Of a stretch of DNA of 40,019 bases, positions 30,243-33,963 are shown piece by piece. Every line of letters begins with the position of its first letter. Within the stretch, counting starts at the first letter, position 1. Source of the stretch: a virus (taxonomy: Duplodnaviria > Heunggongvirae > Uroviricota > Caudoviricetes); the IMG/VR virus record IMGVR_UViG_2531839180_000007; one strand, given 5' to 3'. A model generated the notes under the pieces. It did not search any database and had not been told where the DNA came from. It saw nothing but the letters and a program-made list of their open reading frames with translations. A program made the translations under genes and the position numbers.

Positions 30243-30581
30243 CTATTTCCCTGAATTTACGACGAAACTGTTCGAGCGGACTGAAGCATTCATGCTCATA
30301 GCCTTCGCGGAGGTAGATAACCCGTTGTGTTTCCGGTTCCCAACGAATGACTCTGACGGGCACTCCGTAGTGATCTTTGAACCAGCGGTTAACTTGTCGC
30401 AAAGGACTGTCTCCTTCTGCCGGTTGAAATCACCCACAGCCCACTCAGCAAAGCTGTGGGTTACAATTTCCCTGTCACCTGGTACATTCACTGCATAGCA
30501 ATATTCCACCTTCGCTTTTCCACCCGGTACAGGAAGCGCAATCAGTTGCGAGCGACGGTAGTGTGTTGTTAAACTGTTCAT
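30243..30581 (-). CDS. Hypothetical early protein (112-aa ORF; C-terminal half uncertain)
   Basis: ATG at 30581 with a ggaga RBS; the second half overlaps an alternative-frame ORF at 30223..30402. Confidence 0.4.
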
Positions 30582-31129
30582 GCGTTAGTTTCTCCACAGA
30601 CACAAAACGCCACGGCGCCCGGAGCTGCACACTCGCGGGCGTCACTCTTTTCTGGAGCGCAAAAGATTTTGTAGACCAGTGCTGCATGCTCCTGCAGCTT
30701 CGAAATTGACATGTACAGCTCGTCGTTAATTGCTGCCTGCTCGTGTGGTTCCACCACCCCGTCTTCAATTGCTGAACGAATCTGTTTTGAATAACTGCCG
30801 ATCTGTTCAATAACCTCCAACAGGCGCTGGTTGATATCGGCGTTCTCTACTTCCTCAATTTCAGGAAGTGATACAAACACCCCACCAGCAGACTGTGCGA
30901 CAGCATCCGCAATGTGGTGATTGCCAGCAGCACGCTGTAAAACCATTGCCCATCCCAACGGGAAAATCTGATCGCCATCTGCACGAAGGCGGTTGAATAA
31001 AGCGTTCTCTGTTACATCCAGCCAGTCAGCAGCTTCAGCGTAACCCCCTGGCAATGCCGCGATAGTTTTTCTGACAGCTTTCACGTACCACTCAGGTTGT
31101 TTTTCCACTTTCCAATGATGCTTACCCAC
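30578..31129 (-). CDS. Putative CII-like / YdaT-like early regulator
   Basis: 183 aa immediately downstream of the cro-like gene, the position of cII or ydaT in lambdoid and Rac-type phages. Family assignment is tentative. Confidence 0.35.
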
Positions 31130-31382
31130 GGCTTACCTCCTGTTCCTGTGGTTTAAACCCATTCTGGTTTTGGCTAGATTGAAAACGTGCCGGATAAAGA
31201 ATCTGCATTTCGCTGACTTCACCCTTAAAAAAATTGGCTAAACGTTCTGCAAGTTCGATAGATGGAATCTGCTCCAGCCTCTCAATACGACTCAACGTCG
31301 CTGGATTGACTTGAACACCCGCAGCAACATGCTGCAAAGTGAAACCATGCGCCTTACGCACATTTCGTAATGGTGATTGCAT
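31122..31382 (-). CDS. cro: Cro-like HTH (XRE-family) repressor
   Basis: 86 aa; HTH ..FTLQHVAAGVQVNPATLSRIE..; divergent from the CI-like gene. Confidence 0.7.
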   Translation of the reverse strand: MQSPLRNVRKAHGFTLQHVAAGVQVNPATLSRIERLEQIPSIELAERLANFFKGEVSEMQILYPARFQSSQNQNGFKPQEQEVSRG

Positions 31383-31396
31383 ATACCCTCCAAATA

Positions 31397-31460
31397 TTGC
31401 GCGTTATGCATGTTATTTCACGCAATTATTTTGCGCAAGTTGATTTGCTTATCACGCAAT
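31397..31460. promoter_or_regulatory. oR-like operator region with divergent promoters between cro and cI
   Basis: Three 15-bp TTGC-N7-GCAA-type sites: TTGCGCGTTATGCAT (31397..31411), TGTTATTTCACGCAA (31412..31426) and TTGCTTATCACGCAA (31446..31460). Confidence 0.45.
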
Positions 31461-31479: not shown

Positions 31480-32172
31480 ATGAACATAGGAAACCGAGTC
31501 AGACAACTTCGCCAAGCGAAGAACATGAAAATCGCCGATCTCGCTGAAGCAATAGGAGTAGATGCGGCGAACATCTCGCGCTTAGAAACGGGTAAGCAAA
31601 AACAATTTACCGAACAAACACTGAGTAATATTGCCAAGAGCTTAGGTGTTGATATTGCTGATCTCTTTACCTCTGCCCTCAAAAGTAATACTGTATATAA
31701 AAACAGTAATAATGAGGATGTTGCGCAGGTGAAGGATGTGTTCCGTATTGAAATGCTGGATATCAGTGCCAGTGCGGGAAATGGCCTTATCCAGGGCGGT
31801 GATGTCATTGATGTGATTCATGCCATCGAATACAGAACTGATAATGCTGTATCAATGTTCGGCGGACGACCAGCCAATCACATCAAAGTTATCAACGTTC
31901 GTGGGGACAGTATGTGTCCAACCATTGAGCCAGGAGATCTCATCTTCGTTGATGTCAGCATCAATCAGTTTGATGGTGATGGTATATATGTCTTTGGTTT
32001 TGATGACAAAATATACGTTAAAAGACTTCAAATGATTCCTGACAAACTGCTGGTGATTTCTGATAACCAGATTTACCGTGAATGGGGAATTACTAGCGAA
32101 AACGAACACCGATTTATGGTCTTTGGAAAGGTCTTAATCAGTCAGTCGCAAACCCTTAAGAGACATAATTAA
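31480..32172 (+). CDS. cI: CI-type prophage repressor (HTH plus S24 LexA-like autopeptidase)
   Basis: 230 aa; N-terminal HTH (..MKIADLAEAIGVDAANISRLETGKQ..); C-terminal S24 domain with an Ala-Gly cleavage site and GDSMCPT Ser and KRL Lys motifs. Confidence 0.85.
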   Translation: MNIGNRVRQLRQAKNMKIADLAEAIGVDAANISRLETGKQKQFTEQTLSNIAKSLGVDIADLFTSALKSNTVYKNSNNEDVAQVKDVFRIEMLDISASAGNGLIQGGDVIDVIHAIEYRTDNAVSMFGGRPANHIKVINVRGDSMCPTIEPGDLIFVDVSINQFDGDGIYVFGFDDKIYVKRLQMIPDKLLVISDNQIYREWGITSENEHRFMVFGKVLISQSQTLKRHN

Positions 32173-32191
32173 CCTCAATATCCCATCCATC

Positions 32192-32215
32192 GGCCACCGA
32201 AAGGTGGCTTTTTAT
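32192..32215 (+). terminator. Intrinsic terminator downstream of cI
   Basis: ggccacc-gaaa-ggtggc hairpin followed by ttttt. Confidence 0.6.
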
Positions 32216-32226
32216 TACCCACCATT

Positions 32227-32277
32227 TTGCATATTTCGCAAATATTACTTGCATATCTCGCAATTTAATTTTATCTT
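32227..32277 (+). promoter_or_regulatory. oL/pL-like operator-promoter region
   Basis: Two operator-type sites, TTGCATATTTCGCAA (32227..32241) and TTGCATATCTCGCAA (32249..32263), of the same family as the oR sites; a candidate -35 TTGCAT and -10 TATCTT overlap the second site. Confidence 0.45.
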
Positions 32278-32443
32278 TTGTTCCAGACCAACTACAGGAT
32301 TACAACAAAATCTGGTTGCAACACGGTGCACGGTGCATGTGTCGTAAGAGGTCAGTAAATGTCAAAAACGAACAGGCAGGACGCCCACGAAGTAGCCGCC
32401 GGTGGCGTATGAATGACCGGATGATTCGTTAGCAACAAAAAAA

Positions 32444-32474
32444 GCGCCCTATAGGACGCTTCGCTCTTTAACAA
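32444..32474 (+). promoter_or_regulatory. nut-like site: small hairpin followed by boxA-like CGCTCTTTAACAA
   Basis: cgctctttaacaa at 32462..32474 matches the boxA consensus as I recall it (lambda nut and rrn antiterminators); an imperfect hairpin gcgccctataggacgc lies just upstream. Confidence 0.45.
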
Positions 32475-32519
32475 TCTGGTCCCCATCAACAAGTAACTGA
32501 TAACTTGAGGAGGTGTGAA

Positions 32520-32726
32520 ATGCACAAAACAGAACCAAAAATCGTCGCGCCTGGCTACACAGATGAGGAAATTTATGAGTGGATGACAAAGAAGCTGGCA
32601 GCTATAAACCAGCTTCGTGAAGTGCTGTCTTATCGACAGGAAACAATAGACTCCTTAAAAAAACTGGATCAGGAAATCACGGTTTTATCACAGGATGTTA
32701 CTTTAGATATTGTGCAGACAAATTAG
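32520..32726 (+). CDS. Hypothetical acidic small protein (68 aa), first gene after the pL/nut-like region
   Basis: ATG at 32520 preceded by a gaggagg RBS at 6-nt spacing; sequence MHKTEPKIVAPGYTDEEIYEWMTKKLAAINQLREVL.. Confidence 0.55.
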   Translation: MHKTEPKIVAPGYTDEEIYEWMTKKLAAINQLREVLSYRQETIDSLKKLDQEITVLSQDVTLDIVQTN

Positions 32727-33132
32727 GATCCCATTCATTTTCGTCAAAATCATCAAAGTGATGAATTTGTGATCTCCAGTCTCGATAATCTAAAAATTTC
32801 TGGGCGGTTACACTTATTTTATCAAGCGTGAGTTCATCCTGAATTGAAAGAAGAAGTTCATCAAATTCCATCTCATTAATCTGTTTTGGCATCCAGTGAT
32901 GCTTCATCAGAATAAGGTGAACCAGAGCCTTTTTCCCATTCAACTGATTATAGGGTGTGCCGAATTTCTTCCGGTGCTCATTTAAGACAAGGTCCAGAAG
33001 AGTAAGTAATGTTGCCCTTGATTCAACTTTGCTTATTTCGACTGATGACACTACCCCACTGATTTCAATGCCCCGATACTTTCCAACATTTTCACAGTGG
33101 GATTTGTACAGCGTATAGATATTACCGGACAT
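32698..33132 (-). CDS. Hypothetical protein (144 aa), convergent with the early-left operon, AT-rich
   Basis: ATG at 33132 with an aagga RBS; 3' end overlaps the 68-aa gene by about 29 nt; two 18-19-bp direct repeats lie in its upstream region. Confidence 0.55.
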   Translation of the reverse strand: MSGNIYTLYKSHCENVGKYRGIEISGVVSSVEISKVESRATLLTLLDLVLNEHRKKFGTPYNQLNGKKALVHLILMKHHWMPKQINEMEFDELLLSIQDELTLDKISVTAQKFLDYRDWRSQIHHFDDFDENEWDPNLSAQYLK

Positions 33133-33416
33133 TTCTTTTCCTTTTGCGTTGTTGGGGATAACCAGATTAACCGAATCCTTGTTGTTGGGGAATAACCAGG
33201 TCCACCTCGCCTGATGTGGCTAAAAGCAGGCACATAACAGCTAAGTATTTTCAACCAGAGAGAATCCTTAGCGTTGTGGTGAATGCGGCTCAGCGCACGC
33301 GGGTTAAGGTTGAGGCTGACAGTCGACCTTCTGTGGATACCCACCCGCCTGGTGTGCAACCTTCGCCAGGCACCGGGAGGCACCCGGCACCACAACTTTA
33401 TGCTGTGTGTAGTCCT

Positions 33417-33464
33417 GGCGGTACCAGTTTGTACCCTTGCTTCCGGCTGGTACCGTCCTTTTTA
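33417..33464 (+). terminator. Terminator-like hairpin with T-run inside the GC-rich non-coding element
   Basis: ggtaccag (33420..33427) pairs with ctggtacc (33447..33454) around a 19-nt loop, followed by cttttta. Confidence 0.4.
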
Positions 33465-33552
33465 CAAAACAGAGAAGAGCATCACCGGACGACGGGCTCA
33501 TAACCCAATCCATCCGGGCGGCAGTCACCGCAGGTGTTCTTCTCTGTTTTGT
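33464..33552 (+). ncRNA. Long stem-loop (15-bp perfect stem, 59-nt loop), candidate structured RNA or cis element
   Basis: acaaaacagagaaga (33464..33478) is the exact reverse complement of tcttctctgttttgt (33538..33552). No plausible ORF covers it. Confidence 0.3.
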
Positions 33553-33600
33553 GGAGAAACTAACCGACCTTGCAGGGTCGATATGATGAGGAGCAGCAAA

Positions 33601-33963
33601 ATGGCTAGCGAACGCAGTACTGATGTGCAGGCATTTATCGGGGAGCTGGACGGCGGCGTATTTGAAACCAAAATCGGCGCAGTTCTCAGTGAAGTCGCTT
33701 CCGGTGTGATGAACACGAAAACCAAAGGTAAGGTCTCACTCAACCTGGAAATCGAACCATTTGATGAAAACCGTGTGAAAATCAAACACAAACTCTCATA
33801 TGTTCGCCCGACTAACCGCGGGAAAATTTCCGAAGAAGACACCACCGAAACGCCGATGTATGTCAATCGCGGTGGTCGCCTGACTATTCTGCAGGAAGAC
33901 CAGGGACAATTACTGACTCTTGCCGGTGAACCTGACGGAAAACTCCGCGCAGCAGGTCATTAA
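33601..33963 (+). CDS. Hypothetical early protein (about 120 aa)
   Basis: ATG at 33601 preceded by a gagga RBS; the upstream part of the longer track ORF is Pro/Arg-rich and non-coding-like. Confidence 0.5.
   Translation: MASERSTDVQAFIGELDGGVFETKIGAVLSEVASGVMNTKTKGKVSLNLEIEPFDENRVKIKHKLSYVRPTNRGKISEEDTTETPMYVNRGGRLTILQEDQGQLLTLAGEPDGKLRAAGH

Follow-up and report, generated by a model that had tools for sequence, protein, structure and literature searches.

Positions 32431–33201 of the 40,019-nt stretch of tailed-phage DNA analyzed here (IMG/VR record IMGVR_UViG_2531839180_000007; hereafter the window) hold a small cassette which, on comparison of its sequence with those of related phages, represents one of the alleles of a cargo slot located in the leader of pL in lambdoid prophages of the SfV/SfIV/ST64B type. 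The cassette contains two convergent open reading frames (ORFs): ORF144, a genuine and strongly constrained gene for a 144-aa protein of the ECs1072 family, and ORF68, which would encode a 68-aa protein. A first-pass annotation, made from the letters of the window alone, had correctly located both ORFs, their ribosome-binding sites, the 29-nt overlap of their 3' ends and two direct repeats upstream of ORF144, and had rightly described the 144-aa gene as AT-rich and the DNA beyond cI and its terminator as an oL/pL-like region. It had missed a third, inverted copy of the repeat, a minus-strand terminator, a boxA-consensus sequence and an STnc100-like small RNA (sRNA).

A swappable cargo slot beyond oL/pL

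The cassette lies in a lambdoid prophage of E. coli that is of the SfV/SfIV/SfII/ST64B type. The region downstream of the repressor gene (32173–33600) is 97–98% identical to phages Kati and SfIV across 87% of its length and matches many E. coli chromosomes at 99.9% identity. The cassette of the window is also present in SfIV; in SfII and SfV, other DNA is found in its place, with homology ending and resuming at the breakpoints listed in Table 1. The slot is bounded by oL/pL on one side and by the STnc100-like RNA and yfdP on the other.

We surveyed the slot using as anchors the conserved leader CCCACGAAGTAGCCGCC and a right flank that starts with GCTAAAAGCAGGCAC; the survey set comprised 113 anchored phage and prophage loci plus the window. 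Between the same anchors, this set contains at least ten cargo types. Eight of these share a left flank, consisting of a hairpin, CGCTCTTTAACAA and AATCTGG, as well as a right flank, CCAGATTAACCGAATCCTTGTTGTTGGGGAATAACCAGG, and in all eight the main ORF is on the minus strand. Among the alternative cargos are a 170-aa lipoprotein-like protein of UTI89 with a weak match to LprI, coiled-coil proteins of 171 and 173 aa, membrane proteins of 159 and 164 aa, and a 167-aa protein; a zinc-ribbon-like cargo is also represented. No defence model in PADLOC-DB v2 matched these alternative cargos. The full cassette of the window is present in 408 of 5426 complete E. coli genomes (about 7.5%), and its GC content is 40% compared to 50.6% for the window as a whole.

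Phage morons were first defined in HK97 and HK022. Similarly to these, the cassette is AT-rich, lies between conserved genes, is read against the flanking operon, has its own terminator (a minus-strand hairpin followed by a U-run, 32462–32434), is present or absent between conserved flanks in closely related phages and moves between phage lineages. Unlike the HK97 and HK022 morons, the slot has shared flanks for different ORFs and co-varying inverted repeats, and no cassette promoter was identified.

The lambda record shows cI, rexA, rexB, oL, nutL, N and sieB in this order: rexA and rexB are located between cI and oL and are oriented as cI, N lies just past pL/nutL, and sieB follows N on the opposite strand, abutting it tail to tail. 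In the window, the palindrome TTGC-N7-GCAA occurs in three exact copies; because the only copy besides the pair downstream of cI falls in the cI–cro intergenic region (31445–31459), this pair is, by its sequence, genuine oL. The direction of pL must be rightward, on the plus strand. Judged by gene order, ORF68 is the first ORF in the pL direction and therefore in the position of lambda N, while ORF144, convergent with it and antisense to pL, has the position and the orientation of lambda sieB.

Because the cassette lies beyond oL/pL, whereas lambda rexAB lies between cI and oL, the "rexAB-equivalent position" assigned to it in the first-pass annotation is wrong. What stands of the superinfection-exclusion hotspot proposed there is an immunity-adjacent accessory (moron) hotspot with the diversity of cargos described above. 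The cassette and lambda rexAB are alike in being immunity-adjacent accessory genes of lambdoid prophages, and sites near cI are known to hold exclusion genes. However, the cassette is separated from cI by the cI terminator and oL/pL, its two ORFs face each other on opposite strands, and neither Pfam nor PADLOC revealed homology to RexA or RexB. A two-gene exclusion system that is equivalent to rexAB and co-expressed with cI is contradicted by the gene map, and we consider it extremely unlikely.

ORF144 and the ECs1072 family

Constraint on ORF144 is evident from a set of 43 fetched haplotypes (the cassette has 408 copies genome-wide), in which 27 of the 33 single-nucleotide polymorphisms (SNPs) are synonymous, with a crude ratio of nonsynonymous to synonymous change (dN/dS) of 0.09 (p = 1.6e-10) and an SNP density of 0.08 per nt. 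The protein matches NCBIfam NF033230 over residues 4–144 (E = 5e-46; 156.2 bits against a cutoff of 70) and phrog_5286 (E = 1e-89), both of which are catalogued as functionally uncharacterised, and the Prokaryotic Genome Annotation Pipeline (PGAP) names the identical gene ECs1072 family. A word-indexed search for relatives returned close relatives only; an exhaustive HMMER search gave 73 family clusters at 50% identity. Alignment of 42 full-length members showed lengths of 143–175 aa, mostly 145–155 aa, and the family-conserved residues L50, R54, L64, G66, A69, H72, W80 and W134 are all present in ORF144. No paper naming WP_000016392 was found in the literature.

The AlphaFold (AF2) model of ORF144 is an all-helical soluble bundle with a predicted local distance difference test (pLDDT) score of 84.5, and it has no match among known folds or defence families. 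The protein, soluble and mildly acidic, lacks a signal peptide and ends in an acidic-aromatic tail (FDDFDENEWDP). In Pfam, neither ORF144 nor the 42 family members had a match; this includes the SieB family PF14163, a profile that does detect a SieB neighbor in Yersinia (see below). PADLOC-DB v2 contains no system model that matches ORF144 or ORF68. The homology searches and structure prediction suggested in the first-pass annotation thus placed ORF144 in the ECs1072 family with a confident model and led to no characterised family or fold. Neither protein had been recognised there, and likewise neither matches any characterised family here; nor did the outcome named there as a refutation occur, as ORF68 is no N-type antiterminator and ORF144 no housekeeping gene of the phage.

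Homologues of ORF144 occupy similar sites in other phages. In E. albertii, in an unrelated E. coli phage, in Yersinia mollaretii and Y. enterocolitica, and in Pectobacterium, the gene is flanked by the repressor gene and by the first gene of the early-left operon (YfdP or RdgC), and is encoded on the opposite strand. In a Y. mollaretii prophage (L091, 5827–6321), a SieB (PF14163) gene stands in tandem with an ECs1072-family gene between cI and yfdP. In prophage Sp4 of the Sakai strain (L222, 9361–9816; ECs_5703), the homologue is located between the cII-like and O replication genes and is antisense to the pR operon. This gene, the namesake ECs1072, is a remote member of the family (21% identity; negative by BLASTP; hhalign 97.9%). 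In a microarray study (PMC2241611), transcripts of this remote homologue were detected in uninduced cultures and dropped 4-fold at entry into stationary phase; for ORF144 itself, this is indirect evidence of expression, and the sole evidence.

Two candidates for transcription at the cassette were considered and rejected. STMMW_20121 is an antisense gene expressed in the ST64B lysogen (PMC7067206); its tag is ~13 genes from the named cI-downstream genes, and it is probably a different locus. The svsR transcript of prophage NC-SV sits at the 3' end of cI and not in the cassette.

Repeats, terminators and RNA elements flanking the cargo

The direct repeats upstream of ORF144 have a third, inverted copy downstream of it, and therefore the repeats bracket both genes. 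Inverted repeats of ~14–24 nt bracket the cargo in all eight flank-sharing types; besides the window, the loci in which they were noted are L004, L006–L008, L099, L112, L150 and L196. The cargo-proximal parts of the arms differ between cargo types and match within each; for example, the window, C51 and VTB types have CCCCAACAAC, the UTI89 type has GATGACT... and L099 has GTAACCCTC. Cognate arms have a mean predicted duplex energy of -23.5 kcal/mol, compared to -18.0 kcal/mol for non-cognate arms (permutation p = 0.007), a comparison that includes only ~3 independent motif families. The unrelated phage L004, which has a 55%-identical ORF144 homologue, has kept both upstream repeats and the downstream inverted arm. 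Flanking inverted repeats were not found around the Yersinia, Pectobacterium and Erwinia homologues of ORF144, and therefore the repeats are a property of the slot in E. coli (and of L004) rather than of the gene family.

DNA inversion at the repeats was considered and rejected: 174 of 184 cassette alignments are colinear from ORF68 through ORF144, and no inverted cassette was seen, the other 10 alignments being uninspected. We consider three options for the role of the repeats, i.e. they may pair the 5' and 3' untranslated regions (UTRs) of the cargo mRNA, form a long-range stem in the pL transcript, or represent a shared cis-element upstream of the two convergent starts. The co-varying inverted repeats, together with the shared expression flanks, are the least expected feature of the slot.

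The minus-strand terminator is common to the eight cargo types. If the hairpin is read on the plus strand, a C-A mismatch replaces one of its pairs and the tail is poor in U; from its sequence, the hairpin appears built to terminate the cargo transcript yet to leak for pL. Directly after the hairpin, the pL transcript contains CGCTCTTTAACAA, which is identical to the rrn/lambda boxA consensus; GCTCTTTAACAA has one exact occurrence in the window, and no boxA-like counterpart was found downstream of cro. This arrangement hints that the cargo terminator is read through with the help of Nus factors, in phages that lack a recognisable N. A second terminator-like hairpin lies inside ORF68, ~80 nt past the ORF144 stop codon, and may be the actual 3' end of the ORF144 mRNA.

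Upstream of the hairpin, the 60-nt leader element that forms the left boundary of the slot is kept alongside every cargo type and is 97% identical to that of Salmonella phage ST64B, whereas its surroundings diverge. The overall folding energy of this element is unremarkable (z = 0.15). Between variants, its hairpin shows a compensatory change (CCGGT...ACCGG versus CCTGG...CCAGG).

On the right, the STnc100-like RNA scores 43.1 bits on RF02076, just below the gathering score of 47 (E = 3e-7), and is 77% identical to its ST64B counterpart. A degenerate third direct copy of the repeat, GAATCCTTAGCGTTGTGGTGAAT, lies at 33262–33290 (plus strand) in the conserved 5' part of this RNA, and therefore the RNA is partly complementary to CCCCAACAACGC in the cargo 5' UTR. 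In RefSeq genomes, PGAP places a "frameshifted hypothetical protein" pseudogene on the RNA. STnc100 has been linked to PasD sRNAs in a 2026 preprint. The early-left operon continues beyond the RNA with yfdP, a DUF2303/YfdQ gene and yfdR. In a decayed prophage copy in E. coli Ecol_224 (L098), a deletion extends from just before the ORF68 start up to yfdT, and the left flank up to the Shine–Dalgarno (SD) sequence of ORF68 is fused to a truncated ORF immediately upstream of yfdT.

Table 1 Features in and around the cargo slot (window coordinates)
Feature	Position	Strand	Basis or remarks
CII/CP76-type gene	30578-31129	-	leftward gene
cro	31122-31382	-	leftward gene
cI-type repressor gene	31480-32172	+	Pfam Peptidase_S24 and helix-turn-helix; annotated cI in SfII and SfIV
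cI intrinsic terminator	32192-32209	+	GC-rich hairpin, then T-run
oL operators	32227-32241, 32249-32263	+	TTGC-N7-GCAA palindromes
Putative pL, rightward	TTGCAT 32250-32255, N17, TATCTT 32273-32278	+	hexamers read by eye
Conserved 60-nt pL-leader element, left boundary of variable slot	32369-32428	+	sequence conservation
Variable cargo cassette	32431-33201		blastn breakpoints vs SfII and SfV: homology ends at 32430, resumes at 33202
Predicted intrinsic terminator for cargo (ORF144) transcript	32434-32462, hairpin 32441-32462	-	9-bp GC-rich stem, then UUUUUUU
boxA-consensus sequence CGCTCTTTAACAA in pL transcript	32462-32474	+	exact match
Left inverted-repeat arm AATCTGGTCCCCATCAACAAG	32473-32493	+	complementary to 33149-33168 and 33178-33191
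ORF68 with SD	SD GAGGAGG 32507-32513, ATG 32520, stop end 32726	+	SD 6 nt before ATG; phrog_1744, E 6e-35; PGAP WP_000549623.1
Second terminator-like hairpin, inside ORF68	32591-32616	-	~80 nt past ORF144 stop
ORF144 (ECs1072 family) with SD	32698-33132; with SD to 33143	-	AAGGA 33139-33143, 6 nt upstream of ATG 33132-33130
Cargo 5' region	33146-33201	-	proximal repeat/right inverted-repeat arm 33146-33168, distal repeat 33178-33201
Direct repeat GTTGTTGGGGATAACCAG	33148-33165		upstream of ORF144; sequence
Direct repeat GTTGTTGGGGAATAACCAG	33181-33199		upstream of ORF144; sequence
STnc100-like prophage sRNA, right flank of slot	33243-33465	+	Rfam RF02076
yfdP, first conserved early-left operon gene	33601-33963	+	phrog_204; YfdP in RefSeq

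Possible roles of ORF144 and ORF68

Our working model, in which our confidence is not quite even, is that ORF144 is expressed in the lysogen as an exclusion or accessory gene, that read-through from pL silences it on induction, and that ORF68 may neutralise its product. Specifically, the repressed prophage would express ORF144 as an autonomous accessory gene, and its soluble, all-helical protein would most likely bind a phage or host protein, with the result that superinfecting phages would be excluded or aborted, or that the host would otherwise benefit. On induction, transcription from pL would run antisense across ORF144 and shut it off. The same transcription would also yield ORF68, a small acidic helical protein found only with this cargo, which may neutralise ORF144 and thereby spare the phage's own lytic growth, in analogy to P22 SieB/Esc/sas and BstA/aba. 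An anti-phage role of ORF144 as such is possible, if short of probable, because of the position of the gene, its sieB neighbor and the analogy to these systems.

In lambda and P22, sieB is expressed from the prophage, and P22 is spared through Esc and the sas antisense RNA. Similarly to ORF144, sieB in these phages lies just past pL and the first pL gene, is directed against the early-left operon and is convergent with the pL-proximal gene. ORF144 differs from sieB in that it has neither similarity to PF14163 nor a membrane segment, and ORF68 differs from Esc of P22 in that Esc is an in-frame internal product whereas ORF68 is a separate convergent ORF. The sas RNA is mentioned in PMC7067206. 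The BstA/aba system of Salmonella BTP1 and other prophages resembles the proposed arrangement as a repressor-adjacent prophage defence gene with built-in self-sparing; this parallel is purely conceptual, and PADLOC revealed no homology between ORF144 and BstA. BstA is about twice the size of ORF144.

Several observations weigh against this model. ORF144 has no transmembrane segment (top Kyte-Doolittle score of 0.84 in a 19-residue window), which excludes an action like that of SieB or RexB. A consensus scan and inspection by eye revealed no sigma-70-like promoter candidate on the minus strand upstream of ORF144. The Erwinia homologue lies outside any recognisable prophage, among chromosomal genes. 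The remaining points concern ORF68. Homologues of it were found in Escherichia/Shigella only and are all at least 91% identical; no diverged homologue was detected among the matches, every one of lower identity being a frameshift variant. In E. albertii, the DNA of ORF68 is conserved and the C-terminus is frameshifted, as it is in several database variants. ORF68 is also missing beside all distant ORF144 homologues. Finally, its constraint is statistically marginal (p 0.03–0.10), the crude dN/dS being 0.58 (p = 0.10) for all SNPs and 0.26 (p = 0.033) for SNPs present in at least two haplotypes.

We also considered that ORF68 is not a gene, and that the 236 nt from the ORF144 stop codon to the terminator are a 3' UTR or a target for pL antisense transcription in which an ORF occurs fortuitously. 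This explanation is consistent with the lack of distant homologues other than frameshift variants, with the frameshifted C-terminus in E. albertii, with an SNP density of 0.18 per nt that is about twice that of ORF144, with a dN/dS for all SNPs that is not significantly below 1, with the minus-strand hairpin inside the ORF and with ORF144 homologues that have no ORF68. However, a perfect GAGGAGG precedes the ATG, the ORF takes up nearly all of the unique spacer, the dN/dS of its frame is the lowest among the six, based on recurrent SNPs, and it is intact in 42 of the 43 haplotypes. We regard this explanation as a serious contender but doubt it, and ORF68 is probably translated.

If so, ORF68 would be an acidic protein (isoelectric point 4.78; 12 Asp/Glu versus 8 Lys/Arg) that is predicted to be helical or to form a coiled coil; its matches in the PDB were generic coiled coils only, and an apparent relative in Parasutterella was a chance word match within an MgtE-like gene. 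ORF68 resembles lambda N in being the first ORF past pL and in following a boxA-consensus sequence. In contrast to N, it is acidic, has no arginine-rich motif or Arg cluster and no Pfam match, and is missing in sister phages with the same pL leader. In two other cargos (L099 cargo, 115–426; L150 cargo, 105–398), a plus-strand ORF with a strong SD sequence starts right after the left repeat arm and is convergent, with extensive overlap, with the minus-strand cargo gene; the ORF in L099 begins with a signal-peptide-like sequence. Because the L099 and L150 cargos also carry such an ORF, a small pL-proximal ORF paired with an antisense cargo gene may be a recurring pattern.

The first-pass annotation had described ORF68 and ORF144 together, as convergent genes. 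Their convergent overlap is real, but an obligate pairing is not, as homologues of ORF144 in other phages occur without ORF68. The two ORFs could nevertheless be a toxin–antitoxin or abortive-infection pair regulated by convergent overlap: a small acidic protein is encoded beside a larger one with overlapping 3' ends, and both genes always co-occur within Escherichia. We find this improbable, as ORF144 homologues stand alone in five other contexts, there is no match to toxin–antitoxin, Pfam or PADLOC models, and the two genes are expected to be expressed in opposite regulatory states (pL versus lysogen).

ORF144 could instead be a lysogenic-conversion factor without an anti-phage role, which alters the stress response, metabolism, colonisation or other physiology of the host. 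The heterogeneity of the other cargo alleles (lipoprotein-like, coiled-coil, zinc-ribbon-like and membrane proteins), the growth-phase response of the Sakai homologue and the chromosomal setting of the Erwinia homologue are in line with this possibility; however, the immunity-adjacent placement and the tandem with sieB are more typical of exclusion genes, and neither a signal peptide nor a membrane segment is present in the protein. We consider lysogenic conversion unlikely. It is also unlikely that ORF144 serves the phage's own cycle (the lysis–lysogeny decision, pL read-through or an early host factor) rather than being a lysogen-expressed moron. The missing upstream promoter, the location in a regulatory leader near a boxA-like site and the STnc100-like RNA, and the wide distribution of the family among lambdoid phages would fit such a function. 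Against it, the slot is dispensable and swappable, the gene being absent in SfII, SfV and at least eight other alleles, and an orientation antisense to the early operon, a separate terminator and AT-richness are hallmarks of morons. At the other extreme, the ECs1072 family would be a new single-protein exclusion or abortive-infection determinant with an unseen fold in a plug-in pL-leader slot, in which the repeats pair the cargo mRNA ends (or make the cargo loop out of the transcript from pL) and self-immunity comes from the pL-driven ORF68 along with antisense read-through; taken as a whole, this proposal is rather improbable.

The sequence is already in databases, as are both ORFs and the family, listed as hypothetical proteins, and the kind of element, a moron at a sieB-type site, is known; ORF144 is a further, uncharacterised case of it. 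If ORF144 has no role in exclusion, it is another uncharacterised moron. If it excludes phages, it would be a small and widespread single-gene addition to the prophage defence repertoire, from a family of 73 clusters across Enterobacterales with no match to a known fold or family, and the sieB-type slot of lambdoid phages would be a general hotspot for defence genes, with cargos that are interchangeable. The flanks common to the cargo types, with their directional terminator, boxA-like site and co-varying repeats, could explain how such cargo is expressed and exchanged.

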